DNA of 64,000 nt from an uncultured Gammaproteobacteria bacterium (GCA_964551135.1 CAZKAT010000003.1:1514-65513), one strand, 5' to 3'. Numbered from the stretch's first letter, positions 13,312 to 57,091 are shown. Numbers and translations are program-made. The notes: generated by a model from the letters alone, not told the origin.

Positions 13312-13326
13312 CTGGACAACTAAAAA

Positions 13327-13611: not shown

Positions 13612-13813
13612 TTCACTGTATATAGACTTAGCTTTAAAAACAAGTTCAGAATCCATCGAAATCTCACCCGGCATAGTTGTTGACTATGATAAAGAAGGGG
13701 ATATCGTAGGTATCGATATAGATCAAGCTAGTACAAAAGTTGACATGTCTATTCTTGAAGCCGACTCACTACCATTTGGAAATTTATCAATTAAAAAAGA
13801 TACTGATGCTTAA
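13583..13813 (+). CDS. DUF2283-like small protein (putative antitoxin)
   Basis: 76 aa; MKFRYYQETDSLYIDL...GIVVDYDKEGDIVGIDID matches the DUF2283 consensus (MKIxYDxExDxLYI ... DxDxxGxIVGIEI). Confidence 0.55.
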   Translation: MKFRYYQETDSLYIDLALKTSSESIEISPGIVVDYDKEGDIVGIDIDQASTKVDMSILEADSLPFGNLSIKKDTDA

Positions 13814-37882: not shown

Positions 37883-39444
37883 AGTAATTTAGCAAGTATC
37901 TCATTTACCATTGCTGGCGAAGCTTTACCCTGCGTAAGTTTCATAACCTGTCCCACAAAAAACCCTTGAATCTTTGCGTTACCAGATTTATATTGTTCTA
38001 CTTGTTTTGGATTAGCAGAGATCACTTCTTTAATAACAGTCTCCAAAGCTCCTGTATCAGTAATCTGTGCTAGACCTTTATCATCAATTAACTTCTGCAC
38101 TGAACCACCATTAACCAAAAGCTCATTAATAATATCGTTCTTAGCAATATTATCCGAAATAATGCCTTGATCTATCAGTTTAATCATCTCAGCTAGTAGA
38201 GTTGCTGTAAGTTTAGTTTCTCTGATACTGAGTTTACTCTCGTTGAGGTAAGCAGCTACAGGACCTACCAACCAATTAGCAGCCTTAACAGCATTAGAGC
38301 CTATCCGCAAAGTCCCATCTGCTGCGTTACGCTCGTTCCTCGGACTACTCATTGACGTCTCAGTCAACTCCGTGTCCTCGGAACTCGCAAGCCTTGCATC
38401 TGGGAGCTTTTCGGATAGGCTCTTAATAACCTCTTCAAAATAGATCGCCGTATCCACTTCATCTGTAAGCGTAGTCGCTGTATCTTCATTAATATTAAAC
38501 TCTGCTATATATCTACTACGCTTCTGTTGCGGTAATTCTGGCAGAGAAGTTTTAGCTGTATCAATTTGCTTTTGGTTTAAAGTGAGAGGTAATAAATCTG
38601 GCTCAGGGAAATATCTATAATCATGAGCATCTTCTTTCGATCTCATAGAATGGGTTTTACCAGTGTTCTCATCGAAAAGTCTAGTCTCTTGAACCACAGT
38701 ACCAGCTTGATCTAATATTTCTGATTGACGTTTATATTCATACTCTATAGCGCGAGAAATAGATCTAAAGCTATTAACATTCTTGATCTCAGCGCGAGTA
38801 CCGAACTTCTCAGCACCAGGTTTATTCAATGAAATATTAATATCACATCTAAGCGAGCCTTCTTGCATATTGCCATCACATACTCCTATATATAGAAGTA
38901 TTTTACGCAACTCTTTCACGTAAGCCACAGCCTCATCAGCAGAACGTATATCAGGCTCTGAAACTATCTCTATAAGCGGCGTTGAAGCACGATTAAGATC
39001 TACTAGTGAATAATCTGAACCATGTAATCTCTCAGCACCTGAGTGTACTAACTTACCCGCATCTTCTTCCATGTGAATTCTTAATATGCGCACATCTTTA
39101 GAACCAATATTTAGCTTGCCATGATTACAGATAGGCTTATCGTATTGAGAGATCTGGTAACCCTTAGGTAGATCTGGATAGAAGTATTGCTTGCGATCGA
39201 ATTTAGAATTAAGATCTATCTGACAACCTAATGCTAGTCCAGCTTTAATCGCATACTCTACTGCGCGCTCATTCAATACTGGTAAAACTCCTGGATAACC
39301 CATACATACTGGGCAGGTATTCGCGTTCGGCTCTGCTCCAAACTTAGTAGAACAAGAACAAAATAACTTAGACTCAGTTCTGAGCTGAGCATGGACTTCT
39401 AGTCCGATAACGATTTGGTATTTTAATGCAGTTTCTGTTGCCAT
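37879..39444 (-). CDS. gatB: Asp-tRNA(Asn)/Glu-tRNA(Gln) amidotransferase subunit B (carries an in-frame repeat-element insertion)
   Basis: N-terminal YQIVIGLEVHAQL and CSC...CPVCMGYPG motifs; start set at ATG 39444 (MATETALKYQ...) matching canonical GatB N-termini; the track start 39522 would extend into palindromic element B. Confidence 0.9.
   Translation of the reverse strand: MATETALKYQIVIGLEVHAQLRTESKLFCSCSTKFGAEPNANTCPVCMGYPGVLPVLNERAVEYAIKAGLALGCQIDLNSKFDRKQYFYPDLPKGYQISQYDKPICNHGKLNIGSKDVRILRIHMEEDAGKLVHSGAERLHGSDYSLVDLNRASTPLIEIVSEPDIRSADEAVAYVKELRKILLYIGVCDGNMQEGSLRCDINISLNKPGAEKFGTRAEIKNVNSFRSISRAIEYEYKRQSEILDQAGTVVQETRLFDENTGKTHSMRSKEDAHDYRYFPEPDLLPLTLNQKQIDTAKTSLPELPQQKRSRYIAEFNINEDTATTLTDEVDTAIYFEEVIKSLSEKLPDARLASSEDTELTETSMSSPRNERNAADGTLRIGSNAVKAANWLVGPVAAYLNESKLSIRETKLTATLLAEMIKLIDQGIISDNIAKNDIINELLVNGGSVQKLIDDKGLAQITDTGALETVIKEVISANPKQVEQYKSGNAKIQGFFVGQVMKLTQGKASPAMVNEILAKLL
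38316..38412. repeat. Repeat element D (about 97 bp), in frame within gatB
   Basis: About 90% identical to 30692-30790 in mutS; encodes ARLASSEDTELTETSMSSPRNERNAADG, paralleling ARLASPENAELTRTSMSSSRDERNAADD in MutS. Confidence 0.8.
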
Positions 39445-41696: not shown

Positions 41697-41797
41697 ACGC
41701 AGTTATTTTGTCATTATTCGAGGCAGTTTGCTCCTGAGCGACCGGAGTGTATATGAACATACATGAGGATCGCGAAGGAGCAAACTAACGAAGAAGA
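41697..41797. repeat. Palindromic element E (about 100 bp), upstream of ssrA
   Basis: Imperfect inverted repeat TTTTGTCATTATTCGAGGCAGTTTGCTCCTGAGCGA / TCGCGAAGGAGCAAACTAACGAAGAAGAATGACAAAAG; termini resemble the GTCAT...GAGG ends of elements A and B. Confidence 0.6.
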
Positions 41798-41823
41798 ATG
41801 ACAAAAGAACAAGTCTTCTTTAT

Positions 41824-42228
41824 GGGGGCGTATAGCTTTGACAGGGGTCAGAGATGGTAAAACGCGAGTCCAGGTAGCCTAGGTCCTGGTAAAGCCAAGG
41901 CAAAACATAAGTGTAAATGAATTTGAAGTAACTGTAGCGCAAGCTACACCTGCTGAGCGTTTCGCTCAAGCAGCTTAGTCCCGACATACTGCGGACACTT
42001 CCTCGCTGCTTAACGGCTAACCGGTTAGGATTGTGAGGCACTAAACAGGTCAGTGCATGAATCATACTTTGATAAGTTTAGTATGAGGAGTAAAGATCAT
42101 AAGCTTAGAACCCGTTGAGTGTCTATGCTCTTAAGCACGGCAACAGCTTAGATTTATAGACTACACTCGTAGTGGTTTATCGTTGAAAACTTTTGGACGC
42201 GAGGGGCAGTTCCTCGCCGCCTCCACCA
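41824..42228 (+). ncRNA. ssrA: tmRNA (transfer-messenger RNA), standard one-piece form
   Basis: 5' GGGGGCG pairs with 3' CGCCUCC (7-bp acceptor stem with G3:U70 alanine identity pair) followed by encoded ACCA; 5' GGGGGCGUAUAGCUUUGACAGGGG resembles the tmRNA tRNA-like domain; T-arm GCGAGG/CCUCGC; internal open frame ending ...AQATPAERFAQAA then UAG, consistent with an Ala-Ala-terminated tag. The overlapping 81-aa minus-strand ORF is considered spurious. Confidence 0.75.
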
Positions 42229-42288
42229 TTTTTAATTAAAATATCCAAAATCTAGACATAATCATCAATTTTAGATAATATTACAATT

Positions 42289-43602
42289 ATGAGTACCAAT
42301 ATTATAAATGGAACTTTTATTCAAAGCCCAATGGTAGAAAGTCCTACCAAACCAAATTCTTATTTAGGTAAACGAATAAGAAAGATAACGCCACCTCTTA
42401 AATTACATCATAGACAATTACATTTATCTACAAAAGACTTGTTAAAACTTAGTCTTGAAAAACTCTTTAAAACAAATCCCAATCCAGATGTTGACCAAAT
42501 TTCTGCAGCCATAGACCCAATATTAGTTCCAAGCGAATATGAGCAAGCTTCTAATTCACAACTAATTTGCAAACTATGTGTGCATCGTATTAATGATGCT
42601 TGGGATATTTTTCAAAAATTAAAATCTGATTTGAAACTTGAAAATCCTCAAATAGACTTGGAGTTTGCAAAATCTATTCATGAATCTTATATAACATTAG
42701 TTGAGTCAGAACAAGATCCATTGTCAAACGAAGAGCTAGCGGAGCTAACTCTTAAGGTTATTAAAAAAACTAAATTCATGATAGATCCACGTATTTATAA
42801 AGCTATATTTGGAAACAATGGTAGCTTTAATGTCAAATCTTTTTTGATTCCAGTAACAATTCATGATCAAGCAATTAGACCTGATTCTTCTGAACACAAT
42901 GATTTAAAAAGATTTTTTAAAAATTATGATATAGATATCTCTAATATAGAAATTCCTCCACTGATTGAAACTGATACAGCGTCTGAAGTTGCAGGTCATT
43001 GTGCCACAAATTATATAATTTCTTACCCTCTTGATTCATCTAAAAAGTTATATAGGGAAACTATTGAAACACTTAGAGACTCTTCATTAAAAACACAACT
43101 ATTGTATGAAATAAATAACTATAGTAGCAGTGTTCTATCACATGAACTAACTCATTATTTCCTTAAAGTTAAAGTGCCAAATATTAGGTCTACAGAACCA
43201 ACAGATTTAAACGCAAAAATCTATATTTCGCCTGAAAATTATATTAATTGTGTTATACCTTCAAATGAAATGGCTCGTGAAATGATTGCATATACTATGA
43301 GCTTGTTTACTGATCCAATTTTTTCTATTGCTACAATGCTCGAAAGTAAAGATTCTTGCTTAGAACTTAGCAAGCCAATAATAATAATTTGCAAGGGATT
43401 GGCTTTAGGGTCTCTAGCAAAGGATCAAGCTGAGTTTGATGCAGATTTACAACTCTTACGCAATATGACTGGGATTAACTATATGATTTATATGTTTCAT
43501 AGACTAGGTCAAGAAAAATTTGATCAGTTTGTTAAAACAGTCCAAGAAGTTTTTAAATCTATTTCAGGGCAATTGCTAGCTCAGACACAAGCTCAAAAGT
43601 AG
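42289..43602 (+). CDS. Hypothetical protein with HExxH motif (possible zinc metalloprotease)
   Basis: 437 aa; SHELTHYF HExxH motif with a downstream Glu (PSNEMAREM) that could be a third ligand; otherwise unrecognised. Confidence 0.4.
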   Translation: MSTNIINGTFIQSPMVESPTKPNSYLGKRIRKITPPLKLHHRQLHLSTKDLLKLSLEKLFKTNPNPDVDQISAAIDPILVPSEYEQASNSQLICKLCVHRINDAWDIFQKLKSDLKLENPQIDLEFAKSIHESYITLVESEQDPLSNEELAELTLKVIKKTKFMIDPRIYKAIFGNNGSFNVKSFLIPVTIHDQAIRPDSSEHNDLKRFFKNYDIDISNIEIPPLIETDTASEVAGHCATNYIISYPLDSSKKLYRETIETLRDSSLKTQLLYEINNYSSSVLSHELTHYFLKVKVPNIRSTEPTDLNAKIYISPENYINCVIPSNEMAREMIAYTMSLFTDPIFSIATMLESKDSCLELSKPIIIICKGLALGSLAKDQAEFDADLQLLRNMTGINYMIYMFHRLGQEKFDQFVKTVQEVFKSISGQLLAQTQAQK

Positions 43603-43643
43603 TAACTAAAGCAAGACTGGATTGTATCTAGCTAGGATCCTAG

Positions 43644-44843
43644 TTAATTTGATGCAGCAGCCAATTGTTTTTGTTTTTGATAATAAAGCGTTGCCATAAC
43701 TTTGGCACCATTATGGTCATTCTCTATAGCTATAGGACTATCACTTAATCTATGAAGTTGAGAACCTTTAAACTCCTCAAGGAAAGCTTTTTTATTCTCA
43801 TCATTCGATAAAACATTAGTCAGTGGACTTGCTTGAACAATAAATTGAGCTTGTTGAATTTTAGAATTAGCTTTTATTACATAAGCTAAAACTTTCGCTA
43901 CAACAATTTGAATAGCTTGAAATACTATATCGTCTGTCTGTGGATTAAAGACTTGAGCCATACCATATTTATCACCATTAGTACCTATCTCAGAAGCTTG
44001 TATCTTATGCCTATCAGTTTTCAAATATTCCTCTAATTGTTCAATCAATTTAGGAGTATTAATTACACTTCTTAATTTAGCTAAAGCCACGTCTCTAGAT
44101 CTATTTAAGAGACTAACTATATGCTTTGCAATCGCAAGCAAACCTTCTCGCTCATTAGTTGGCGAGAATAATTCACCCAATTTCACAGCAACTTTTGGTA
44201 ATAGATCTTCAAAAACACCTTGAGGCTTGAATTCTGCATCGTAAAGATTGTGTTTAATTATTCCTTTATTGAAATCATTTTTTTCTTGATTAACATCTTG
44301 ACCCTCTGTTACAGTAAATTTCCCTGAACCAAGATCTATGAAAGCAAGATTCTGAGCAACTTGTATACTTGGAATAGATAAACCTGCAAAGAGTTTAGCA
44401 ATATTTGCACCAATAACTTTAATCTCTAAACCAGCTGCTTTAACACAATCTGATAAAGTTTCTAATGTCTTGCTTAGCGAAGCTTGAAAAACATCTTCAA
44501 ATTTTAAAAGATCTTGAGAATAAGTAGCATTTGGATCCACAAAAAATAATGTAGATGGTCTTTCTAATTTATGAAATTCATAATCAAGATTGGTTAAATT
44601 AGTTAAAGATTGTTTTAATCTAGTGTTCTCTCTATTTAATATCACAGCATTATAAGAACTTGGCTGAACAGATTTTTGGGGATCTCTTGGCAACTCTGAA
44701 TAATTTTGAATAGTTAAATCACCCTTAGTTTTCTTAGCAGAAGGCGGTTCATGCAAAACACAAGCTTTAAAAGACAAGCCTGCTGGTTGCGAAGTATGGG
44801 TACCGGTAATAAAAGACGTTTGCACGACATAATAGACTAGCAT
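43644..44843 (-). CDS. Hypothetical protein (399 aa)
   Basis: ORF only; AFIDLGSGKFTV loosely resembles a phosphate-binding loop of actin-like/Ppx-GppA ATPases but the context is unconvincing. Confidence 0.4.
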   Translation of the reverse strand: MLVYYVVQTSFITGTHTSQPAGLSFKACVLHEPPSAKKTKGDLTIQNYSELPRDPQKSVQPSSYNAVILNRENTRLKQSLTNLTNLDYEFHKLERPSTLFFVDPNATYSQDLLKFEDVFQASLSKTLETLSDCVKAAGLEIKVIGANIAKLFAGLSIPSIQVAQNLAFIDLGSGKFTVTEGQDVNQEKNDFNKGIIKHNLYDAEFKPQGVFEDLLPKVAVKLGELFSPTNEREGLLAIAKHIVSLLNRSRDVALAKLRSVINTPKLIEQLEEYLKTDRHKIQASEIGTNGDKYGMAQVFNPQTDDIVFQAIQIVVAKVLAYVIKANSKIQQAQFIVQASPLTNVLSNDENKKAFLEEFKGSQLHRLSDSPIAIENDHNGAKVMATLYYQKQKQLAAASN

Positions 44844-44975
44844 GAATTACCTGTAAATAACAATCTATGCTGCATTGCCACTATTCATCTTTCTACATAA
44901 TATTCCCAGCATTTGTCTAATGTCTAGCTATGACCCAATTACTTAACCTATTAAATCAAACAACATAATTCATAT

Positions 44976-47888
44976 GTGATAAAATCCACATTCGAAATGT
45001 TGATTAAACCACAATTAATTTTTCAAGCACCAGATAAGGATTTACCAGGCGTAAATCCTAAATCTGGTAATACCAATATTCCAAGTAATTCTTCTTTGCA
45101 ATTAAGACGTAATCTAGCAGCAACGTTATTAACTTATGAAGATACCAGACGTGCCAAATTTTTTGGAGCCATTAATGGAACTCCTCTGGAGTCTTATTTA
45201 CCTAAAGTAAAGTCTCCAATAGAAAAATTCCTGAAAACTAATCCCAGTGATAAATTAATTCAGGCTTGTGCTACAGATTTGCGTAATGGTAGTAGGGAAG
45301 AAGCTATATTAAAAGAAACATTGTCTATTTACGAATCTTTATCCAAAGCCAAGATAGATGATCGCTTTATACCTGTGTTTCAGTCTTTAGTCCGTGCAAA
45401 TGAAGACAATAAACAATATTCTAGACCTCAATTAGTAGAAGTAGTAATAGTTCCTCTATCAAGAATACAAAATTTTAGTGATAAATTACTAACCAAAGCT
45501 ACTAATGATTTAAGTTATTTAGTTGGTAAAAATGGACAAGATGAATCTAAGTTGGCTGAATATATAAAAGTAGCCCAAAATATAGCTGGATACAAACCTA
45601 CTGCTGACATTCGGAATCTTTACAACAATATCCTTAATGCTGTCTGTGCTACTAATGCAGAAGAGTTGAGATTAACAGCAGATTTAAATCGATTCTTCAA
45701 ACGACTTTCAAATTTATCGATATCCTATGATGTTCAAACTGAATTAGAGAAACAAATTCAATATACTGGTACTCAATTTGGATCAGTACCAAATAGCATA
45801 GATAAATATTTATTATCAGTTATAACTTCTTTTATAAACTTTAATGATCGCCTAACTATGTTTTCATCTGATCGTAGAACTCAAGTCGTAGCACATTACA
45901 ATGAATTAGTTCAAATTACAAAAGATTCTGGCATGCATTTGGATACTCTTAATGATTTATTTACAAGAGGAATAAAAGACGATTTTATAACTGAAGAACT
46001 GGATATTGCAAATTCACTTTATCGATCTTCTTTACATTCCACTAAAAGTGGTCTAGCTGATTTAATTGCATATAGAGGAGAGTCTGCTTTAGAGTTAAAA
46101 CGAAGCCTTCGTGACTTGTATCTTAAAGCAAATGACAAAGATAATGCAGTAGCTAAATCGCTGATCTCTAATTTCAACTCGCTTGCTTTATACTGTCCCA
46201 CTAATTGGGTGTCTGATCCTGGTTCATCTACTTTATATGAAGTACCCAACTTAAAACCTTTATTACCGATAGTTAAATGTTTCGACGCCTTAATCGATTC
46301 TAATAATTTCCGTAACAATACTGTTCATATTTTAACTGAAAGATTCAAAGATTCACTGGATGAAAGTCACTATCCATCAGATCTTGCTTATAACAAATTC
46401 GTTAGTGCTATCAAAGCAAAAGGTTATGATGCAGCTCAATTGAAGCGTCAATTAATATTGATTACTGCACATGATATTTTAATGCACAATATCTCTAACA
46501 CGGGAAAGGTACCAGATTGGAAATATTTTAGTGAAATATTCCATAATGGTGATCTTCCTTTTCGTCATGGTACTCCAGAATATGATCAATGCCTGAGAGA
46601 AAGCCAAATTATTATGAGAGCTAGTTTCAATGCTCACTATGGTTTTGGAGCTTTAGCAAACGATGCCAAAGGTTGGAAAGATTCCATCCTGGCAAGATTT
46701 GGAAGAGATGTTGCATTTCAAGAAGTACAGGCACCTCGTTGTAAAGATGGTAATGCTTTTCCTGGAATGGGTTATGTGATAACTGGTCTCAATGATGATT
46801 TTTTACGTATTCCTGATCCAGCAAGAGAGATGAATGGTGATGAGGCATATCAAGACTTTTTAGCAAATTATCCTTTCTTAGCTGCTGTTGCTGATGATAT
46901 AAGTTCTACTCAGTTTACATTTCTTAGGGGAATGGTGGTAATAACTAATACAAAAGATAAATATTGTTTGCCAGATCGTAATCATCAAATGATACCTTAC
47001 TCTCTCGTTATTTATAATGATCATTTTCATAATAATGGTTATGATATTGCTTTCTTAGTTCCTTCAAAAATACTTTTAGATAAAATGAAACCGACCTTAT
47101 TCTCTATCTATGATACAGATGCGCCTGCTACAATACCCCAAAATATTAATGATGTACCACTTGATATTGAGAGTCTTAGAAAAGAAGCTCATGACATGAA
47201 TGCAAGCATTCTTAGTTTAGGTTCATCATCTAATATTGCAGGCTTAAGTAATGCTTGGGAGCCTAATAGAAGACCATATTGGGCATGGGAAGCTGAAAAA
47301 AATCAAGATTGGCGAGACCTTGATGGACATAAACATAAATGGTTTGCGATGGCACGTCATGAACGGTTTTGGACCCCAGAGAATGAAGAAGAAATGAAAC
47401 CTTTTCAAAGAGTACATAAAGAAGTTTATGGAGTTGCAAAATCATTATTTGATAATTTAAATTCATTTAAATTATTTCTCTCAGCTTACAAGCATGGTTA
47501 TTTAGGTAATTTTGCTAGCAAAAAAAGTTCAGCTACAAGGGATGAATCAATAAGAACGTTTGCTAGTTCAGACAGTTTTCAAACCAGTTCTGACAACGAT
47601 ATGATGTTTGATCAAGCATATCTACTAAGGCAAGCAGCTTTAAAAAGAAAAGCCACAAATTTCCCTAAATTAGTTGTTTATGATACTTATAAATGGTCTT
47701 CCGAACCTATTGAAGGTTTTGAGCTTGATTTAGCTAATATGCAATTAACTTGGAATGGACAGACTCATCAATTAAATTTGGATAAACCAACAGCTACAGA
47801 TAGATCCTTATGGAGAAGAGTATTTAACCAATTTACAGGTTTGAATTATGATTTTAGATTTTATGAAAAGGGTTTAAATCAACATTAA
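44976..47888 (+). CDS. Large hypothetical protein (970 aa)
   Basis: Long uninterrupted ORF without recognisable motifs; no signal peptide apparent. Confidence 0.45.
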   Translation: MIKSTFEMLIKPQLIFQAPDKDLPGVNPKSGNTNIPSNSSLQLRRNLAATLLTYEDTRRAKFFGAINGTPLESYLPKVKSPIEKFLKTNPSDKLIQACATDLRNGSREEAILKETLSIYESLSKAKIDDRFIPVFQSLVRANEDNKQYSRPQLVEVVIVPLSRIQNFSDKLLTKATNDLSYLVGKNGQDESKLAEYIKVAQNIAGYKPTADIRNLYNNILNAVCATNAEELRLTADLNRFFKRLSNLSISYDVQTELEKQIQYTGTQFGSVPNSIDKYLLSVITSFINFNDRLTMFSSDRRTQVVAHYNELVQITKDSGMHLDTLNDLFTRGIKDDFITEELDIANSLYRSSLHSTKSGLADLIAYRGESALELKRSLRDLYLKANDKDNAVAKSLISNFNSLALYCPTNWVSDPGSSTLYEVPNLKPLLPIVKCFDALIDSNNFRNNTVHILTERFKDSLDESHYPSDLAYNKFVSAIKAKGYDAAQLKRQLILITAHDILMHNISNTGKVPDWKYFSEIFHNGDLPFRHGTPEYDQCLRESQIIMRASFNAHYGFGALANDAKGWKDSILARFGRDVAFQEVQAPRCKDGNAFPGMGYVITGLNDDFLRIPDPAREMNGDEAYQDFLANYPFLAAVADDISSTQFTFLRGMVVITNTKDKYCLPDRNHQMIPYSLVIYNDHFHNNGYDIAFLVPSKILLDKMKPTLFSIYDTDAPATIPQNINDVPLDIESLRKEAHDMNASILSLGSSSNIAGLSNAWEPNRRPYWAWEAEKNQDWRDLDGHKHKWFAMARHERFWTPENEEEMKPFQRVHKEVYGVAKSLFDNLNSFKLFLSAYKHGYLGNFASKKSSATRDESIRTFASSDSFQTSSDNDMMFDQAYLLRQAALKRKATNFPKLVVYDTYKWSSEPIEGFELDLANMQLTWNGQTHQLNLDKPTATDRSLWRRVFNQFTGLNYDFRFYEKGLNQH

Positions 47889-47907
47889 AATATGCTATTA
47901 TGTTGCC

Positions 47908-48213
47908 ATGATTAAGAATCAAATAATTTATACTGGCCTCAATAAACCTTTCTATGAAAGAACTCTACCTGTTATTGCACCTGAATCTAATTCTATAAGC
48001 ACATTGAGCAGTAGAGACTTACGTAATATTTTTATACCAGTCAATATGCCTGCCTCTCCTCTTCCAGATGCTCCTACAACTCCAACTACTCCAACTCCTG
48101 ATAAAGATGTACCAACAAGAAGCGTACCTTTACCAGCAAACCCTCAACAAGATCCCGATGGTGCTCCAAGTTCGGTACCTTGTCCTCCTAGTGAATGTCC
48201 TCATCCAAGATGA
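47908..48213 (+). CDS. Small Pro/Thr-rich hypothetical protein
   Basis: 101 aa; C-terminal PTTPTTPTPD...CPPSECPHP low-complexity; 20 nt downstream of the 970-aa ORF. Confidence 0.3.
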   Translation: MIKNQIIYTGLNKPFYERTLPVIAPESNSISTLSSRDLRNIFIPVNMPASPLPDAPTTPTTPTPDKDVPTRSVPLPANPQQDPDGAPSSVPCPPSECPHPR

Positions 48214-48271
48214 AACTCTTTGATTAAGACCATTTCAAAGCTACGTTTAGCATTTTAAATCTCTTAGCAAA

Positions 48272-49432
48272 TTAGTTAAAAATATACCAATCAATTATTT
48301 TCCACACATCTTGATTACCAAGCTCTGATGCCATCTCTAATCTAGATTGTGCCGCTGTCTTGCCAACACAGTAAATGCCTGCTTGACTAAGATTTCCTAT
48401 CATTTCGACAAGATGTTCTTGAGCTAATTTGTCTCCTGGAAATAGCTTTGGCATATAAGCATGAACCATATTTTGTAAAATAGCATTGAAAGTAAATAGA
48501 GTTGGCCAAGTGATCATTTCTGCTCTAGTTCTATCTCTGAGCTTTCCTAAGTCATCAGGATTAATTCCTTTCTTAAGTTCTCCGGCAATTACATCTCTTA
48601 AAATATATGCTGAACCAACTATCCCTCCTAAAGCTTTTCCTGAACTAGCATTCAGCTTTAAACCTAACGCAAAACTCAATCCAAAAATCAATAAATCAAT
48701 TGCTGATCTTTTCAAATTGAGTTCTTTTGTAGAAATTTTCTCAATACCCTCATTAGCTTTTTCAAGATCTTTTTTTCTTTCACAAAGATTTTTTACTAAT
48801 ATAGTTAAAGGAATATTTCTCGGGTCGTTTCTATATTCATCTGGATACTTATTTAATTCTGCTTTTACAACGTCACGAAGTTCACTAAGGATAGGATTTC
48901 TGAGATATTTAACTTCTCCAATAATAGTATAGTAACTAAGCATGCTGGCAAATCTAGATTGCATTTGCACAGAATCTGTAAATGATGCAGCAAGAAAATT
49001 AGCAGGATATCTTGCAAGCAGGGCACCTAACTGTATAATCAAACCAGCCCAGGGCCTGCAATAAGCATCAGCATTATCATAACGAAGTGCATCTTCAGAA
49101 CTATGAGGATCTTCTGCATGCTTAACAAAATTATTAGCAATTAAAACTTTCGCTTCATAAAATTCAGCTCCAATAGCAGGCAATGATGAACTAAGGGTGG
49201 GATTAACACAATGCATTACATGATTAACTAATGGAGCTTTTGTTTTTTTATTAGTCTTTTGTGCTAATGCTTTATTAGTTAGCTCTTCAGCATTAGATTG
49301 ATTTTTTTGCTCAGGTTGTTTTTTAATTTCATTTGTTGCATGACCACTAACCGTAAGCAAACCTAGGGGCAAAACTTTTAAAAAATTTCTTCTACTTATT
49401 GGGTGAACCAGCACTGGGCAAAATAATATCAC
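48272..49432 (-). CDS. Hypothetical protein with twin-arginine (Tat) signal
   Basis: 386 aa; N-terminal ISRRNFLKVLPLGLLTVSGHA matches the Tat consensus (S/T-R-R-x-F-L-K plus hydrophobic region and AxA-like site); GTG start. Confidence 0.5.
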   Translation of the reverse strand: MILFCPVLVHPISRRNFLKVLPLGLLTVSGHATNEIKKQPEQKNQSNAEELTNKALAQKTNKKTKAPLVNHVMHCVNPTLSSSLPAIGAEFYEAKVLIANNFVKHAEDPHSSEDALRYDNADAYCRPWAGLIIQLGALLARYPANFLAASFTDSVQMQSRFASMLSYYTIIGEVKYLRNPILSELRDVVKAELNKYPDEYRNDPRNIPLTILVKNLCERKKDLEKANEGIEKISTKELNLKRSAIDLLIFGLSFALGLKLNASSGKALGGIVGSAYILRDVIAGELKKGINPDDLGKLRDRTRAEMITWPTLFTFNAILQNMVHAYMPKLFPGDKLAQEHLVEMIGNLSQAGIYCVGKTAAQSRLEMASELGNQDVWKIIDWYIFN

Positions 49433-49483
49433 AAGAACACGCGCAACCTGTTATTTTAATCATCATGCTATTATTTTTAATCT

Positions 49484-50788
49484 GTGAAAATAGCTGAAGT
49501 TCAAAAATTAGTAAATAGAACAGAAATAGTGGGTCAGAAAAGACCTACAATTCTTGAAGATCTTTTTGCCTATTTAAACACTCTAGTTACTCAATTTCAC
49601 AAAGCAAAGCAAAATATTTTTGATAAAACTGAGATTGATTTTCAAGAGCCTCTAAAAATAGTAGCAAATGATTTACAAATTAATAATCTTCAACCAATAG
49701 TAGAAACAGAAGATTTCAATTTAGTACGGAATTTAAATTTGGTAGATTTTGCTACATTCCTGGATATAGTAATTAGGACTGTTGCCGTAAAAAATTCTGA
49801 TTTGATTAAGCTTACAGATTTAGCTGCTAAGAATATTTTTAGAACTCATATTAATAAACAAATTTCAGATAGATTAGGAAAAATGTTTTTTGAAGATCAT
49901 TTGGAACCATGGACAAATGATTACATTGATTCATTATCAAGTTCTGAAATTAGCCTTGAAACTCAAGATTTACAGAAAACAATGTTTGATCATGAGAGAA
50001 ATCATTTTTATATTTTTGATATTGATGGAACTCTTAAAGAAGAAGAATCAAATTGTGTAAGCCATGTTATACCAAACATAGATGATCAAGTTAGAAAGGA
50101 TTTGATTACTCTTAGCCAAAAACCTAACACCACCGTCTTAATATTAACATCAAGACCTACGGATGCAATCCAGGAGTCTAATCTACCATATAATATAATC
50201 CCTATGATTACTGGTGCTGGTCGAGAACTTATTAATGGTAATAGACATGAAGTCTTAGTTGGTGATGCATTAATGTCAGAGACAGAAAAGTTTGTAAATC
50301 ATTTACATACTCTGTTAAAGAATCTAAATATATCAAGAGATAAGTATCTTATAAGACAATATGCTGGCTCTCTTTATATTCAGTTCATAGAAAATAATTT
50401 CACTAAAGCAAAAGTTACAGCTATGAAAGCATTGGAAGTATTAATGGCAAACTCTCTTTCAGGCTGGTCAATTGAAAATAGTGATAGTAAATATATCTAC
50501 TTTAAGAACTCTCAATTTCAATATGACAAAGGAATGGCATTGAAAGAAATTCTTACTAATTATAGAGATCAAATAAATGATAAAACGAATATCTATGTTC
50601 TTGGTGATACTTCAAGTGATTATACCGCTATGAAAGCTCTTAAAGAAGCTGATCTGCCAAATGGAGTTAGAAAAGTTAATATTGCAGTTGGTAAAGAATT
50701 AACTGATACAAAGAAATATCCACATGTAGATAAGAGATTAAGTTCGTATCATGCTGTAGCAGATCTATTAAACTGGCTTGCAGTATAA
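49484..50788 (+). CDS. HAD-IIB family phosphatase-like protein (trehalose-phosphatase/Cof-like C-terminal domain) with unknown N-terminal domain
   Basis: 434 aa; HAD motif I FDIDGTL, motif II LILTSR, and motif IV YVLGDTSSD preceded by conserved KG. Confidence 0.5.
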   Translation: MKIAEVQKLVNRTEIVGQKRPTILEDLFAYLNTLVTQFHKAKQNIFDKTEIDFQEPLKIVANDLQINNLQPIVETEDFNLVRNLNLVDFATFLDIVIRTVAVKNSDLIKLTDLAAKNIFRTHINKQISDRLGKMFFEDHLEPWTNDYIDSLSSSEISLETQDLQKTMFDHERNHFYIFDIDGTLKEEESNCVSHVIPNIDDQVRKDLITLSQKPNTTVLILTSRPTDAIQESNLPYNIIPMITGAGRELINGNRHEVLVGDALMSETEKFVNHLHTLLKNLNISRDKYLIRQYAGSLYIQFIENNFTKAKVTAMKALEVLMANSLSGWSIENSDSKYIYFKNSQFQYDKGMALKEILTNYRDQINDKTNIYVLGDTSSDYTAMKALKEADLPNGVRKVNIAVGKELTDTKKYPHVDKRLSSYHAVADLLNWLAV

Positions 50789-50848
50789 TTATTAAGTGGA
50801 CAATTTCCTTTAATTTCAACTCAAATCATTTGAGGTATAATATACTTA

Positions 50849-51913
50849 ATGCCAAAACTAGAATTGAAACCTAGGACATATATAATTCTAGCTATCATCA
50901 TAGCTTTAATAATTGTCGTGCATTTGTATTTAGCAGTATGGGTGAAACATTATGTCAATAAAAAGATGGCAGATTTAAACGGATATAGTGGTTCAATAGA
51001 AAAAATTGAAATACATCTATGGCGAGGAGCTTATAAAATTGACGGTCTGAATATTTATAAAGAACTGGGTGGACTGAAAAAGCCTTTTTTCTCCACAGAA
51101 ACTATGGATATCTCTGTTGATTGGCGTGCACTGTTGAAGGGTGCCATAGTTGCAGAGATTACGTTTAATAAGCCTAAAATTAATTTCGCTAAAACCCAGA
51201 CGGGAGAAAACGCTGGATGGGGTGATTTTATTGACTCACTTGCTCCTTTTGAAATCAACCGTCTAAATGTAAAAAAAGGGAAATTATCCTATATCGATTA
51301 TTCAGCTGAACCAGATGTAAATCTATTTATTGACAATGTTAACGCACAGGTCACTAATCTTAATAACATTGATCATAAGAGTAATGCCCTTCCTTCAACT
51401 CTTAGGGTAACTGGTAAATCTATTGGCAATGGTAATTTAACAGTAAATGGAAGTATGAATATTTTGACTGATATACCAAGTTTTGATCTTGATTTAAAAC
51501 TTACCAAAGCCAAATTAACTGCATTCAATGATTTTATACATGATGCAGCTGGCATAACTTTTGAAGAAGGGAATATAGGAATCTTCTGTGAACTAGCTTC
51601 TACTAAAGGAGAAGTGAAAGGCTATGTTAAGCCTATTCTTACCCATGTTCGCATAATAGATATTAAAAAGGATAAAAATCCATTTAACCTAATCTGGGAA
51701 TCACTTGTATCAGTATTTATGGAAGCCTTCAAAAATCAGCATAAGGACCAATTCGCTATGCGTATACCAATAGAGGGTAAACTAGAAAATCCAAAAGAAG
51801 ATTCATGGAGAGGCTTCTTGAGCATTTTCAGTAATGCTTTTAAACATGCCTTCAAAAGAAATGTAGACGGAACTATAAGCTACAAGGATATACTTGTAGA
51901 AGCCAGAACCTGA
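50849..51913 (+). CDS. DUF748/AsmA-like membrane-anchored protein
   Basis: 354 aa; single N-terminal TM helix (YIILAIIIALIIVVHLYLAVW) followed by a beta-rich region resembling DUF748/AsmA-family proteins. Confidence 0.4.
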   Translation: MPKLELKPRTYIILAIIIALIIVVHLYLAVWVKHYVNKKMADLNGYSGSIEKIEIHLWRGAYKIDGLNIYKELGGLKKPFFSTETMDISVDWRALLKGAIVAEITFNKPKINFAKTQTGENAGWGDFIDSLAPFEINRLNVKKGKLSYIDYSAEPDVNLFIDNVNAQVTNLNNIDHKSNALPSTLRVTGKSIGNGNLTVNGSMNILTDIPSFDLDLKLTKAKLTAFNDFIHDAAGITFEEGNIGIFCELASTKGEVKGYVKPILTHVRIIDIKKDKNPFNLIWESLVSVFMEAFKNQHKDQFAMRIPIEGKLENPKEDSWRGFLSIFSNAFKHAFKRNVDGTISYKDILVEART

Positions 51914-51939
51914 ATACCTGATAAAATTTATAATGCTCG

Positions 51940-53257
51940 ATGTTTGAACTATGGTTAAAGCGTATATTTTTCTCTAAGATAGACATCTCTATTATTGCTT
52001 ATTTCAGAATTGTTTTTGGACTCTGCATGTTAATCAATAGTATCCAGCTCTTTACTGAAGATTACATTGAATATTACTGGTTGAGACCACGTTTTCATTT
52101 TCATTACCTAGGTCTAGAATGGATACATGCTCTACCAGGTAAGGGCATGTATATTCTATGCTTTATTATTAGTCTGAGTTCTTTGTTTATAATGCTTGGA
52201 TTCTTCTATCGATTAAGTATTATAGTTTTTTTCTTCAGTTGGACTTATACATGGTTAATCGGTCAGAGTACTTATAACAATCATTATTACCTTATTTCCC
52301 TTCTTAGTTTTCTAATGATTTTCATTGCAGCTAATGGAAAGTATGCATTAGATGACATGATATTCCCAAATATCCAAACAGACGAACTAGCGTCCTGGAC
52401 TTTATTTATACTGCGTTTCCAGATTGCGATTCCTTATATCTATGGAGGTATCGCTAAACTTAATGAAGATTGGTTTCATGGTGAACCAGTAAGAACATGG
52501 TTAACAAACACAGGAGGATTTGTTGATCAAGAATGGTTTGTATATTTTGTTTCATATGGAGGACTGATCTTTGACTTGACTATTATTCCTTTACTTATTT
52601 GGCAAAGAACAAGGTTGCTAGCATTTATCGCAGTTATTGGCTTTCATCTTAGTAATCACTTCGCGTTTTCAGATATCAGTATTGGAATATTTCCATGGTT
52701 GATGATTGCAGCGACTGCCTTGTTTTTTGAGCCTAGTCAATTCTCCAAATTATTTATGAGGATTAAGCATGTTAAGTAAAATAGAAAAACTAATTTCCTT
52801 ACTCTTAATTTTGTTCATTTTGATACAGATCATTGTTCCTTTTCGATATTTATATTACCCAGGACCTTCTGCCTGGAATGAAGAAGCACATAAATTTATT
52901 TGGCATATGAAACTCGCACACAAGAAGGCTTACGCTCAATTTATCGTATTCAGCCCAAGTCTGAACAAATCATATAAAGTTGATACAAGAAAATTTCTTA
53001 CTAGCTGGCAATATGAAGTGATGGTATCCAATCCCAGATTGATACTACAGTTTGCTCACTATTTAAGAGACTTATATAAAGAACGGGGCATCAATGACAT
53101 AGTAATTAAAGTTGAAGCCAAAACTTCACTCAATAATAGACCGCTACAATATCTCGTAGACCCTAATGTAGATTTAGCCAAGAAAGAAAACACTTTAAAG
53201 CATTTTGATTGGATTATGCCGTTAAATGTTAAGGTAGTACCTAAACATTCATTATAA
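51940..53257 (+). CDS. HTTM-domain (vitamin K-dependent gamma-carboxylase-like) membrane protein, apparently split by a +1 frameshift into ORFs 51940..52779 and 52769..53257
   Basis: First ORF carries HTTM hallmarks (AYFRIVFG, PRFHFHYLGLEW, LGFFYRLS, NNHYYL); second ORF (overlapping by 11 nt in another frame) begins ...PFRYLYYPGPSAWNEEAHKFIWHMKL, which reads like the continuation of the same domain. Confidence 0.5.
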
Positions 53258-53289
53258 TTTCTAATAATGACAAATAACTCTTTCTCAAT

Positions 53290-53478
53290 ATGTCCCTCAG
53301 GTATCATTCAAATACAAGTGCTAGATTAAACTCTTTTATTCAAACAAGAAATAAAACACTAAAACTAATCGAAAACTTAAATGAAGAAGATGCTTACATT
53401 CAGTCCATGCCAGATGTAAGTCACATTAAGAGTGGAATAGCTCTAATTCTTATAGTTTTATTTTTCTGTTCAATTTAA
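53290..53478 (+). pseudogene. Remnant of an egtB-like N-terminus (truncated paralogous fragment)
   Basis: SFIQTRNKTLKLIENLNEEDAYIQSMPDVS aligns with LFIQVRNKTLDLVRDLNEEDTCLQSMTDAS at the N-terminus of the egtB gene at 53867, then diverges and terminates. Confidence 0.5.
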
Positions 53479-53641
53479 ATTCTACCGAGTCACCTTCATC
53501 TTGTTTAACTTCTGGCTGCACTACTCTGACGGTTTCTTTAATAACATCAGGTTGTTTTACTTTGTTTTTATCTATGATTAAGTAAATACCCACCATAACC
53601 AATACTGTTAATAGGGCGATAATAATTCCATTGTTGTTCAT
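53450..53641 (-). CDS. Candidate small membrane protein (63 aa)
   Basis: N-terminal TM helix IIIALLTVLVMVGIYLII, charged tail; AAAGGAA RBS about 7 nt upstream. Confidence 0.3.
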   Translation of the reverse strand: MNNNGIIIALLTVLVMVGIYLIIDKNKVKQPDVIKETVRVVQPEVKQDEGDSVEFKLNRKIKL

Positions 53642-53866
53642 AAGAAATTCCTTTTAGTTCAATACATTACTACTCAAAACTTTTTTGTAATTTCATACAA
53701 AACAAATCTCAAATATATGTTCTATAGACTATTATACACCTTATTATGCCATTTATCACGCATTTCAGATCATATAATAACAGTAATTCTAGATATAGGC
53801 TTCATAATTTAATAATTTGATGTATAATCATTTGTATTCAAACTAAATGGGGTATAAGTTTTATAT

Positions 53867-55201
53867 ATGCATTTAATCAATCCACAAACTCCTAAAATAA
53901 ATTCAACTAGTACAAATACTATATTAAATCTATTTATTCAAGTAAGGAATAAAACTTTAGATTTAGTTAGAGATTTAAATGAAGAAGATACTTGCTTACA
54001 ATCAATGACAGATGCAAGTCCCACTAAATGGCACCTAGCACATAGCTCGTGGTTCTTTGAAACTTTCTTACTTAAAAAATTTAAAACTAATTACAAAGAG
54101 TTTAATCCTGATTTTAATTTTCTATTTAACTCTTACTACAACTCTATAGGTAGAAACCGCTTCCCGCGTTCAAAACGAGGCTTAATCTCAAAACCAACTC
54201 TCCAAGAAGTTATAAATTATAGAAAACATATTGATAATAGCATCATAGAATTAATGGAGAAAGGTCTTCTAGAATCCAAAGCAAACACTGTGCATGAGAT
54301 TATTAGCATATTAACCTTAGGAATTCATCATGAACAACAACATCAAGAACTAATCATTACTGATATTAAGCATGTTCTATCGAAGAATCCGCTGAAGCCT
54401 ATTTTCTCAGACTATACACGTAAAATAATTTTAGGTAGCAAATCTACAATTAGCAAAAAGTCTGAATATATATACCAGCCAGGCGGCATAGTCGAAATTG
54501 GTTATCGAGACGGGGACTCTACTACTGATTTTTGTTTTGATAATGAAATACCAAGCCATCCAGTCTATCTTGAACCATGTTTGATTAGCTCTCAATTAGT
54601 TACTAATAGTGAGTTTCAAGAATTTATGGAAGATGATGCTTATAATCGTCCTGAATTATGGCTAGCAGATGGTTTTGATTTTATTAAAGCTAATAATATT
54701 CATTGTCCACTATATTGGTTTAAAGAAGATAGTAAATGGCAAATCTTTACACTTGGTGGCGTATTCAAACTGAATCCTAAGGAACCAGTTGTACATGTCA
54801 GTTTCTATGAAGCAGAAGCCTTTGCTAGATGGCGTAAAGCAAGGTTAGTGCGTGAAGCAGAATGGGAATCTTTTGCAGAAGAACCATTTAGTAAGAGAAA
54901 TATACTAACTAGTAATTTCCAAGAAAATAATATTTTCCATCCTCTCGCTACTAACGAGTTACAAGTATATGGCAACCTATGGCAATGGACCATGAGTGCA
55001 TATAGTCCATATCCAGGTTATAAAGAACTACCAGGGGCGCTAGGAGAATATAACGGTAAATTTATGATCAATCAAATGGTACTCAAAGGTGGTTCCTGTG
55101 CGACTCCTAGATCACATATTAGATCAAGCTATCGCAATTTTTTCTATCCTCAGCAAAGATGGCAATTTATGGGGATTAGACTTGCCCAAGATGTTTCATA
55201 A
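53867..55201 (+). CDS. egtB: Ergothioneine biosynthesis sulfoxide synthase EgtB-like (DinB_2 plus FGE-sulfatase domains)
   Basis: 444 aa; N-terminal DinB-like metal site (HLAHSSWFFETF, GIHHEQQHQEL) and C-terminal FGE-like domain (GNLWQWTMSAY...KGGSCATP...RWQFMGIRLA). Confidence 0.75.
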   Translation: MHLINPQTPKINSTSTNTILNLFIQVRNKTLDLVRDLNEEDTCLQSMTDASPTKWHLAHSSWFFETFLLKKFKTNYKEFNPDFNFLFNSYYNSIGRNRFPRSKRGLISKPTLQEVINYRKHIDNSIIELMEKGLLESKANTVHEIISILTLGIHHEQQHQELIITDIKHVLSKNPLKPIFSDYTRKIILGSKSTISKKSEYIYQPGGIVEIGYRDGDSTTDFCFDNEIPSHPVYLEPCLISSQLVTNSEFQEFMEDDAYNRPELWLADGFDFIKANNIHCPLYWFKEDSKWQIFTLGGVFKLNPKEPVVHVSFYEAEAFARWRKARLVREAEWESFAEEPFSKRNILTSNFQENNIFHPLATNELQVYGNLWQWTMSAYSPYPGYKELPGALGEYNGKFMINQMVLKGGSCATPRSHIRSSYRNFFYPQQRWQFMGIRLAQDVS

Positions 55202-55212
55202 AGGAGAAAGAT

Positions 55213-56184
55213 ATGAGAAATACAATGACAATGATGAAGACTTACTTAGAACCTAACTTAGCTATTTGCAATGAAATTTATAACAGTTTAAGCCAAGTTA
55301 ATAAATCTCTTTCAAGTAAATTTTTCTATGATGAATATGGTTCAAAACTTTTTGAAGATATATGTGAACTTGATGAGTACTATGTGACCAGAGCTGAGAT
55401 GGAAATTATGGAAAAACAACTATCAGTGTTTGCAAACCTAGCAAAGAAAAAACTATTAGTGATTGAATTAGGTAGTGGTAACACTACTAAAATACGACAC
55501 TTATTGGACAATTTTCCCAATATTCAAACCTATCTCCCCATTGATATTTCAGGAGATTACCTCAAAATCCAAACAGAGAAATTAGCTAATAACTATATAA
55601 ATCTTAATATTCAAATGCTAGCAGCTGACTACACGCATCCTTTTGTTTTACCTAGATTAGAAAATAATTTCGAAGAGATTTTAATTTATTATCCAGGTTC
55701 TTCTATTGGTAATTTTGAACCAATGCAAGCTAGGGTAATCTTACAAAGAATCATTACTTTAATTAAAGAGAGCTATACCTCTTTACCAGTGAAGATGTTA
55801 ATTGGAGTTGACTTGATTAAGGACTCGCAGATTCTTAATCAAGCCTATAATGATTCAAAAGGCATTACTGCTAAATTTAATTTAAATCTTCTTAATAACT
55901 TAAATAATATAGCTGCAACTGATTTCGATTTAAATAAATGGGCACACTTTGCTTATTATAATAATCTACAGAAACGCATTGAAATGCATTTAATTAGCCT
56001 TCATCAACAAACAATCAAAATTGATAATAGAGAGATCTCTATACTGCCTGGTGAAAACATTCGCACTGAATATTCTTACAAATATACAATTGAAGATTTC
56101 TCACAATTATTCGAACCAGTATTTAAACTCGAAAAATGCTTAACCGATGCGAATAATTATTTTGGATTGTTCTTATTCTCCTAA
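55213..56184 (+). CDS. egtD: L-histidine N-alpha-methyltransferase EgtD-like
   Basis: 323 aa; EYYVTRAEMEIM and LVIELGSGNTTKIRHLL motifs typical of EgtD-type SAM methyltransferases; 11 nt downstream of egtB. Confidence 0.75.
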   Translation: MRNTMTMMKTYLEPNLAICNEIYNSLSQVNKSLSSKFFYDEYGSKLFEDICELDEYYVTRAEMEIMEKQLSVFANLAKKKLLVIELGSGNTTKIRHLLDNFPNIQTYLPIDISGDYLKIQTEKLANNYINLNIQMLAADYTHPFVLPRLENNFEEILIYYPGSSIGNFEPMQARVILQRIITLIKESYTSLPVKMLIGVDLIKDSQILNQAYNDSKGITAKFNLNLLNNLNNIAATDFDLNKWAHFAYYNNLQKRIEMHLISLHQQTIKIDNREISILPGENIRTEYSYKYTIEDFSQLFEPVFKLEKCLTDANNYFGLFLFS

Positions 56185-56290
56185 AAACATATTGGGTGAT
56201 AGCTCTAGGACTTTAACTAAAAATTCTTAGATCCAAGGAAATTATGATCTTTAGCTTCAACTATATGCTTATAAGCATTGTGCAATAAAG

Positions 56291-57067
56291 TCATTGAAGT
56301 TTTAGCCGAACTAGAAACTGCCTAGCTAATATACCTCCTTCAAACTTGAATCTATTTTTTTGTTCTTCTTGTCTTTTCTTTTCTAAATGATCAAAATGCT
56401 CCTCATCAGCTTTTCTTCTTTCTCTCATCTTGCTGGGTTTTGAACCTCTACTAATTATTCCTTGAATCTCATTTTTCATTTTTGCTTTTCCATTTTCATC
56501 ATCTGGATTAAGATTTAAAGCACGCTTAGCTAAATCAGCAAGCACTGTTACATTAGAATCATTCTCTAAAGTATCTGGATTAAGTGTATAAGGAATTTCA
56601 CCTTTGATAGCTTCTGGAGGATAATCTGGGGTTCTATAACCTAAAGCGGCTTTTAAAGATTCTATTTGTGCTTCATCCAGTACTCTACTTCTAATTAATA
56701 CTCCTATTTCATTCTGAGCTTGGTTTAAATCTTGAATTACTATGTTAGTTAAAATACTGATGATGATAGTCTCTCTACCTTCTTTCTTGGCTCTTAATTT
56801 TTCATGCTCTTGTTCAGCTGGGATGATTTCATTAATTTGCTTTAAAAGCCAATCTCTGTCAGCTTGATTAATTTCATGCATTGCAAATGCCTTATTAACA
56901 AGTTTAGTATTAGCTTCATCAATAACAGGCTTAGCTAATTCTTCAGGACTAACTTTTACTTTAGTCGTCACAGGATTTGGTTTAGCAACTTCTTTAGTGC
57001 AACCTAAAGCTAAAACTGGCATTAATGCCATAGAAGTAATAGTTCTCAAATTATTGCCTAGAAACAC
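56291..57067 (-). CDS. Hypothetical lipoprotein
   Basis: 258 aa; signal with lipobox LALGC (likely start at internal M, MALMPVLALGC); charged, helical C-terminal half. Confidence 0.45.
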   Translation of the reverse strand: MFLGNNLRTITSMALMPVLALGCTKEVAKPNPVTTKVKVSPEELAKPVIDEANTKLVNKAFAMHEINQADRDWLLKQINEIIPAEQEHEKLRAKKEGRETIIISILTNIVIQDLNQAQNEIGVLIRSRVLDEAQIESLKAALGYRTPDYPPEAIKGEIPYTLNPDTLENDSNVTVLADLAKRALNLNPDDENGKAKMKNEIQGIISRGSKPSKMRERRKADEEHFDHLEKKRQEEQKNRFKFEGGILARQFLVRLKLQ

Positions 57068-57091
57068 AATTCACAATAATACTACATATGC

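Follow-up and report, generated by a model that had tools for sequence, protein, structure and literature searches.

The 64,000-nt stretch of DNA analysed here (GCA_964551135.1, CAZKAT010000003.1:1514-65513, called hereafter the window), deposited as that of an uncultured Gammaproteobacteria bacterium, carries a gene for transfer-messenger RNA (tmRNA), ssrA, followed by six open reading frames (ORFs). A preliminary description of the sequence had proposed that these ORFs form an island integrated at ssrA. We find that, in this genus, the 3' end of ssrA demonstrably serves as an attachment site and integration hotspot. The six ORFs would be the ssrA-proximal half of a species-specific accessory tract of ~14.9 kb, running from 42229 to about 57100 and low in guanine plus cytosine (GC). 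The explanation that we favour, with moderate confidence, is that this tract is the fixed, decayed cargo of ssrA-targeted islands and is no longer mobile. Two features of the window are needed at the outset:

41824-42228, + strand: tmRNA gene (ssrA), Rfam RF00023, aligned with the tmRNAs of four related species
42219-42233, + strand: unoccupied attachment site GCCTCCACCATTTTT, with its core TCCACCATTT at 42222-42231

Integration at the 3' end of ssrA in related genomes

Relatives were examined as metagenomic contigs. TrpA homologues led to three graded relatives and two more distant ones. The order of genes on the left-hand side, (PGI-)MutS-TopA-x-GatB-(EndoV)-TrpA-(GNAT or 2-hydroxyacid dehydrogenase)-tmRNA, is kept down to 64% TrpA identity, and tmRNA orthologues come after the same left-hand genes in five relatives. 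The DNA after ssrA is different in each lineage compared. The two nearest species, L092 (82% TrpA identity) and L095 (79%), retain the left flank, but their 5.8-8.4 kb downstream of ssrA do not contain the tract. None of the six proteins of the block has a homologue in these two or in the more distant ssrA loci examined.

Direct evidence for the use of the site came from a sibling strain found in another sample. Its contig (L002, in extended form L090) matches the window at 99.9% identity from position 42219, where the final 10 nt of ssrA begin. Left of this junction lie at least 9.9 kb of foreign DNA, inserted exactly between ssrA and the first gene of the block, which encodes a 437-aa protein. 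The junction reads TCTATTAA on the left and GCCTCCACCATTTTT on the right (the right side is also written GCCTCCACCATTTTTAATT). It is not a k-mer assembly chimera, because only 15 nt are common with the tmRNA end. The inserted element encodes an HTH_17 (AlpA-type) protein, a 275-aa and a 115-aa protein, a DUF3987 protein, a 383-aa protein, a GmrSD restriction enzyme, and proteins of 99, 313 and 292 aa; its HTH_17 and DUF3987 genes recall P4-like islands. In the sibling strain the six-ORF block is therefore on the chromosomal side of attR, and the window represents the empty site.

Different elements were found after ssrA in the two nearest species. In L092, ssrA is followed by a RelB/ParE pair, small ORFs and an M78 peptidase. 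The corresponding position in L095 is taken by a large serine recombinase of 539 aa (Resolvase, Recombinase and Zn_ribbon_recom domains; 12381-14000, - strand), whose ORF reads into the 3' end of the tmRNA gene (12027-12432). Beyond the recombinase come genes for HTH_17, SEFIR/TIR and DUF3854/DUF5906 primase-like proteins, of which the SEFIR/TIR protein is likely to be defence cargo. L095 and L090 encode homologous HTH_17 proteins, and their elements have a 188-nt non-coding stretch in common. In L095 a thiamine pyrophosphate (TPP) riboswitch (11312-11420) and a Thiamine_BP gene (11410-11748) are inserted between the GNAT gene and the tmRNA gene.

The core TCCACCATTT consists of the last 7 nt of ssrA plus TTT, and occurs only once in the window. 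A single 6.5-kb Logan contig, L003, contains four exact copies and one copy with one mismatch, all on one strand; L092 contains two copies, one in ssrA and one in an intergenic spacer 3.7 kb downstream (shuffle expectation 0.02 for each contig). Upstream of each copy is one of three arm types, and one of these types matches the right end of the L090 element. All three types are represented at the five sites of L003, and cassettes bounded by site repeats are present in both L003 and L092.

L003 is also the only contig with relatives of two genes of the block, those for the 970-aa and 101-aa proteins, and they lie between two TCCACCATTT sites. A ParE toxin-antitoxin pair in the same cassette has 94-95% identity to its counterpart in L092. 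Homology between the window and L003 stops just past the 101-aa gene, at the right-hand att-like site of L003. In a relative, then, at least these two genes of the block are carried as island cargo.

These observations suggest the following course of events. Several families of integrative elements in the genus use the extended site GCC-TCCACCATTT-TT, composed of the last bases of ssrA and a run of T, for attachment, and at least one of these families is probably driven by a large serine recombinase whose gene lies beside attL on the reverse strand. Each integration would regenerate ssrA and move older cargo downstream, which would yield the tandem cassettes bounded by site copies seen in relatives. 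The tract of the window would then be what is left of repeated integration (accretion): its integration module and att repeats would since have been lost, leaving it fixed and immobile next to an intact, unoccupied att site, and its genes would have been gathered piecemeal and not inherited as one functional module.

Contigs of this clade often break at ssrA. Eleven of them (L005, L006, L007, L008, L091, L093, L098, L099, L100, L105 and L106), which were produced by several assemblers and represent at least five lineages, have one end inside the tmRNA gene, and a twelfth (L107) ends 163 nt after it. Metagenome-assembled genomes (MAGs) of the clade hence systematically lose the accessory DNA beyond ssrA. 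A metagenome scan with a clade-specific tmRNA 3' pattern returned only an already known contig.

Composition and extent of the tract

An unbiased two-boundary change-point scan of the 64 kb gave 42250-57100 as the best low-GC segment (GC 0.324, versus 0.373). At the resolution of the scan (50 nt), its left edge falls on the tmRNA 3' end. The same drop in GC after ssrA is present in L092 and L095, and the GC of the L090 element is 0.34. GC at third codon positions (GC3) is 0.18 for the genes of the block, against 0.27 for the other genes of the window (p=4e-4).

The right end proposed for the island, at 50788, did not hold. GC is 0.323 in 42229-50848 as well as in 50849-57070, and the right edge of the low-GC segment is ~6 kb past 50788. 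The second half of the low-GC domain has the following content:

50849-57067: genes with Pfam matches to DUF748, HTTM plus a vitamin-K-carboxylase (VKGC) lumenal-like domain, EgtB and EgtD, together with a 5' fragment of egtB and a 258-aa orphan

Separate ORFs, with an overlap of 11 nt, encode the HTTM (51940-52779) and VKGC lumenal-like (52769-53257) domains, in the same way in three assemblies; either one gene may have been frameshifted, or the division into two genes may be natural. The spacer that precedes egtB contains a 117-nt copy of the 5' end of this gene (53313-53429 versus 53911-54027, 74-75% identical). It is the only repeat of note in the tract and points to local rearrangement in the low-GC domain.

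Origin of the tract in the window

Several results weigh against an arrival of the tract by integration. The low-GC segment ends at ~57.1 kb and not at 50.8 kb, with no compositional boundary at 50788. Beyond chance, no second copy of the ssrA 3' end was found in the window with patterns of 34, 18, 15, 12 and 10 nt, mismatches allowed, so that the partial direct repeat which the preliminary description had proposed to seek downstream is missing from the window. As candidates for attR, the imperfect matches to the core at 57911 and 58883 were rejected: both are intragenic, occur at chance frequency and have no arms. No arm vestige exists anywhere in the window, although such repeats are well preserved in relatives. 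Pfam recombinase domains are absent from all ORFs of the tract, and a tblastn search of the window with the island proteins of L095 and L090 returned only the antisense of the tmRNA end; the earlier statement that neither an integrase nor a second ssrA 3' end can be seen is thus confirmed for the window. Moreover, the contigs of relatives do not extend to the genes on the right of the tract, so that an insertion between two conserved flanks is not demonstrated, and all three assemblies of the species carry an identical tract, with no presence/absence polymorphism. Finally, the GC3 of the block (0.182) is close to that of the orphans scattered over the window (0.208, p=0.056), the choice of synonymous codons in the block agrees with the genome's own usage, and the composition could reflect weak constraint or young genes rather than a foreign origin. 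The expectation of deviant composition was therefore borne out for GC and for GC3 relative to other genes, and failed for codon choice and in the comparison with other orphans.

An intact and currently mobile island, integrated at ssrA and spanning 42289-50788, is effectively refuted by these data. It would account for the low GC of the block and its position beside ssrA, but it would have neither recombinase nor attR, its end at 50788 is marked by neither a repeat nor a change in composition, and the active att site is on the left of the block, and empty.

A more serious competitor, though still an unlikely one, is that the tract consists of native, lineage-specific orphan genes which drifted to low GC at the border of an insertion hotspot and never were island cargo. 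The lack of att repeat, arm and integrase in the window agrees with this, as do codon usage and the fixation of the tract in all three assemblies. So does the sibling strain, where the island enters between ssrA and the tract and leaves the latter on the chromosomal side. Other orphans of the window have an equally low GC3 and, in one case, a similar ratio of non-synonymous to synonymous substitution rates (dN/dS, 0.28). For instance, a 1431-aa orphan (16902-21197, - strand) has a GC3 of 0.18 and only a sub-threshold match to collagen repeats; large low-GC orphans therefore exist far from ssrA in this genome too. On the other hand, drifting native genes do not explain why the best compositional boundary in 64 kb lies within 50 nt of the tmRNA 3' end, nor why the Pfam-positive genes at 50.8-57 kb are equally low in GC. 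They also fit poorly with the orthologues of the 970-aa and 101-aa genes inside an att-bounded cassette of L003, and with the entirely different DNA found after ssrA in the nearest species.

We therefore keep decayed, fixed cargo as the preferred reading. What stands of the proposed ssrA-integrated island is the hotspot in the genus, the drop in GC at the tmRNA 3' end and the L003 cassette with the 970-aa and 101-aa genes; an attR, an arm, an integrase and a delimited end are missing. The suggestion that the island might be old or degraded comes nearest to this reading, except that a delimited island is unsupported. Likewise, the comparison with relatives for presence or absence gave two answers, since the tract is absent after ssrA in L092 and L095 but fixed in the three assemblies of its own species.

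The six ORFs downstream of ssrA

The six ORFs after ssrA are intact, lie in mixed orientation and are separated by spacers of 19-132 nt. The positions given in the preliminary description were exact, the motifs that it described are present, and no housekeeping function was recognised:

42289-43602, + strand: 437-aa orphan with HExxH...E, a putative gluzincin-like metal site
43644-44843, - strand: 399-aa orphan, a singleton cluster at 90% identity
44976-47888, + strand: 970-aa orphan, a mosaic gene (963 aa with a later start in the databases)
47908-48213, + strand: 101-aa proline-rich orphan (22 Pro), linked to the 970-aa gene
48272-49432, - strand: 386-aa orphan with the twin-arginine motif SRRNFLK at residues 13-19
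49484-50788, + strand: 434-aa protein, N-terminal ~170 aa unmatched, divergent HAD-IIB domain at residues 172-433

With the exception of the 434-aa protein, none of them matches anything in Pfam, NCBIfam, PHROGs, PADLOC or the sequences of the Protein Data Bank (PDB). The proportion of Pfam-negative ORFs is 5/6 in the block, against 9/44 elsewhere in the window. All six proteins belong to clusters at 90% identity that are confined to their own species; five are singletons, and the cluster of the 386-aa protein also includes the 380-aa form of the sibling strain. The six genes are real but fast-evolving orphans. By their motifs, the block would comprise a putative HExxH metalloprotein, a Tat (twin-arginine translocation) signal protein, a divergent HAD-IIB phosphatase and three proteins without assignable function.

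An exhaustive reading of 1.84 billion representatives yielded only two homologues of the 437-aa protein, with 32% and 24% identity. The HELTH motif of this protein occupies residues 285-289, and H285, E286, H289 and E331 are invariant with both homologues (22-33% identity). The invariance of HExxH and of the downstream Glu suggests that the family is a metal-dependent hydrolase. No match was obtained in Pfam, NCBIfam, PADLOC or the PDB. AlphaFold models had a mean predicted local distance difference test (pLDDT) value of 39 with a single sequence and 57.5 with three sequences, and a Foldseek search against the PDB gave only noise (best E-value 0.17, template modelling score below 0.2). A 294-aa HExxH protein of L003 was rejected as a further homologue, as it has no BLASTP match to the 437-aa protein. 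The most distant homologue (P0135; L104, 10001-11350) is encoded ~1.1 kb downstream of a tRNA gene (8777-8849) on an unrelated contig, which may be another location associated with a tRNA gene (tDNA).

For the 399-aa protein, no match was found in any library searched or in the PDB. The 970-aa protein has, apart from itself, a single relative (75% identity) among 5.8 billion clusters. Compared with its counterpart in L003, the gene is 45-60% identical over the first ~750 nt and 91-98% identical over the last 1.3 kb: by its sequence, it is a mosaic whose 5' third has diverged while its 3' half is conserved. It is under purifying selection, with a dN/dS of 0.37; flanking housekeeping genes have values of 0.03-0.09, and another orphan of the window has 0.28. 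It is therefore a real gene under relaxed constraint. The 101-aa protein is 72% identical to a 98-aa ORF that follows the 965-aa gene of L003 (dN/dS 0.77).

In the 386-aa protein the SRRNFLK motif is followed by VLPLGLLTVSGHA. This canonical motif makes it a predicted Tat-signal protein, which may be exported; no significant family or PDB match was found for it. The 434-aa protein contains the motifs FDIDGTL, DxDGT and GDxxxD. Its scores stay below the curated cut-offs for trehalose-6-phosphate phosphatase (T6PP) families: 22.4 versus 27 for Trehalose_PPase (PF02358), 25.8 versus 26.7 for T6PP_C (PF21141) and 28.3 versus 68.05 for TIGR00685, and the match to PDB entry 6upb has an E-value of 0.03. 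It thus appears to be a HAD-like protein with HAD catalytic motifs, for which T6PP activity is not demonstrated. Profile and structure searches, which had been proposed as a check, were hence informative to a small extent: a weak HAD-IIB match for this protein, nothing for the other five, and an uninformative fold search for the 437-aa protein.

The preliminary description had also raised the idea of an uncharacterised functional module. In the form considered here, the six proteins would be inherited as a unit and act jointly, perhaps in an envelope system or an exported effector system. Compact packing, with the short spacers mentioned above, is compatible with it, and so is the presence of a Tat-type signal, a conserved HExxH site and a HAD phosphatase domain, in one protein each. 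However, the two distant homologues of the 437-aa protein are found in unrelated contexts, with none of the other five genes nearby. The sole relative of the 970-aa gene, in L003, is accompanied by the 101-aa gene only, with the toxin-antitoxin pair and other genes upstream. Orientation is mixed, and no match was found in defence or phage libraries. We consider such a module improbable, and the idea was not upheld.

A wider proposal can be made, which we advance as a speculation with rather low expectations. The locus would represent an undescribed Melainabacterial form of serine-recombinase island accretion at ssrA, and its fixed cargo would provide new families acting as exported host- or prey-interaction factors: the HExxH family (three members), the 970-aa mosaic with its hypervariable N-terminal third, and the Tat-signal protein. 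Traffic at the site might then also drive the replacement of the tag segment of the tmRNA.

Comparison with known integration systems

The closest described system, by analogy of layout, is that of the ssrA-specific genomic islands of Dehalococcoides. These low-GC islands stand in tandem after a tmRNA gene that is present in one copy, and repeats of its 3' end delimit them (McMurdie et al. 2011, PMC3146451). A conserved arm lies upstream of each repeat, and a reverse-strand module at attL opens with a ~540-aa serine recombinase (PMC3146451). Some islands have no integration module, and a tract further downstream has no island signatures and is apparently fixed in the chromosome (PMC3146451). 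The genus studied here reproduces this layout in another phylum: the 539-aa serine recombinase of L095 and the tandem cassettes of L003 and L092, with their repeats and arms, have direct counterparts.

There are also differences. The host is Melainabacteria-like and not a member of the Chloroflexi. The repeat has 10-15 nt, versus 20 bp, and corresponds to the extreme 3' acceptor end plus the run of T, not to the T-loop. Module genes encode HTH_17, DUF3987 or DUF3854/DUF5906 primase-like proteins here, versus DsiA, RecF, ParB and Mom in Dehalococcoides, and the cargo comprises defence genes and orphans versus reductive dehalogenases. The window itself displays only the eroded, repeat-free state of this layout, as it has neither a reverse-strand serine-recombinase module at attL nor tandem cassettes with arms.

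For islands in tRNA and tmRNA genes in general, the Islander account (PMC4383910) states that integration in the 3' part of the gene regenerates the gene, and that the displaced 3' fragment marks the far boundary. Site-specific entry in the 3' part of ssrA with regeneration of the gene is common to these islands and to the elements of the relatives. The tract resembles tDNA islands in its adjacency to the RNA gene (it starts at 42229-42250) and in its deviant composition. Unlike the Islander islands with tyrosine integrases, no locus seen here has a tyrosine integrase, and the sole recombinase is a large serine one. The window has no displaced fragment or repeat of the target, and no integrase or recombinase. 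We regard the tract as a decayed relative of the tDNA-island kind, not as a delimited island.

The cassettes of SCCmec-type elements are integrated by the large serine recombinases CcrA and CcrB at the 3' end of an essential gene present in one copy, and they can accrete (PMC3146451). A serine recombinase, cargo cassettes at a gene 3' end and accretion are points of likeness with the ssrA elements. The target is ssrA, unlike rlmH/orfX in SCCmec, and the L095 recombinase is likened to these enzymes as a large serine recombinase, not specifically as a CcrB homologue.

The feature is thus of a familiar kind in a little-studied lineage, with no new kind of system in the window itself. The picture drawn for Dehalococcoides, in which ssrA is a landing pad where serine-recombinase islands stack and decay, would extend to the non-photosynthetic relatives of cyanobacteria. 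It comes with a concrete att site, GCCTCCACCATTTTT, that is open to testing, and with a handful of true orphan protein families under selection.

The tmRNA gene and its leader

The ssrA gene gave a covariance match of 93.6 bits to Rfam RF00023 (gathering score 47), over model positions 1-374, that is, the full model. ARAGORN found no tmRNA in the window; the Rfam match overrides this. The loop of the T-arm (42195-42228) is a non-canonical GGCAGTT instead of the TTCGAAT type, and is kept in each of the four related species examined. This loop is probably the cause of the ARAGORN miss. Further features of the gene and of its leader are:

41913-41978: tag ORF within ssrA, encoding VNEFEVTVAQATPAERFAQAA
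41622-41635, + strand: GGGAATGATATAAT box, extended -10-like, conserved across the alignment of the window, L092 and L095
41702-41810, + strand: nested inverted repeats forming a ~109-nt hairpin, after the promoter-like box and before the mature 5' end of the tmRNA

The tag ORF has a GUA resume codon and ends in ...AQAA. A different tag, AETSEFSSEVAYATPASYALAA, was found in L091 (1-376), in L006 (2295-2605) and in the sister species L092, versus VNEFEVTVAQATPAERFAQAA in the window. The existence of two tag alleles in one species is unproven, because L091 and L006 could be chimeric: the sister species has identical tmRNA segments and co-occurs in the same samples. Contigs L105 and L106 are 99.4% identical across 12.3 kb, yet encode the tags VETSEFATEKVEVAFAAPALRVA and ADTNEFTAVRATTTGSHLMAA, respectively (about 12195-12265). 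The rewriting of the tag-coding stretch between near-identical sequences could be due to short-patch recombination or to assembly chimerism between species.

The GGGAATGATATAAT box is, from its conservation and its resemblance to an extended -10 element, the probable promoter of ssrA; a promoter and terminator scan gave no enrichment relative to shuffles. The palindromic element that had been noticed upstream of ssrA was confirmed as the nested inverted repeats at 41702-41719/41793-41810 (89% identity) and 41725-41752/41759-41786 (75%). This 109-nt hairpin sits between the conserved TGATATAAT box and the mature 5' end of the tmRNA. Covariation is strong: RNAalifold over three species gave 42 pairs, of which 24 have compensatory double changes; on Rfam, only sub-threshold matches to generic hairpins were obtained for 41702-41810, and no family. 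The palindrome is a structurally conserved leader hairpin, unrelated to the att site, and possibly corresponds to a structured leader of the pre-tmRNA.

Host lineage and other features of the window

The named TrpA homologues (59-64% identity) come from MAGs of Candidatus Melainabacteria, "Cyanobacteria bacterium" and Candidatus Caenarcaniphilales. Among the matches to GTDB representatives that were listed, the best one for GatB is a Melainabacteria MAG (55%), and no close relative was among those listed. The window lies on an ENA contig of 288 kb; other products encoded in it are flagellar rod proteins, a GGDEF protein and MqnC.

A partly palindromic element of ~100 nt is present in two copies, 87% identical, at 30692-30790 in MutS and at 38316-38414 in GatB, in frame in both genes. 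It adds peptides of the form ...ARLAS(S/P)E(D/N)(T/A)ELT(E/R)TSMSS(P/S)R(N/D)ERNAAD... to the two proteins and is absent from the sister species L092. The element is reminiscent of the Rickettsia palindromic elements, which insert into coding sequences.

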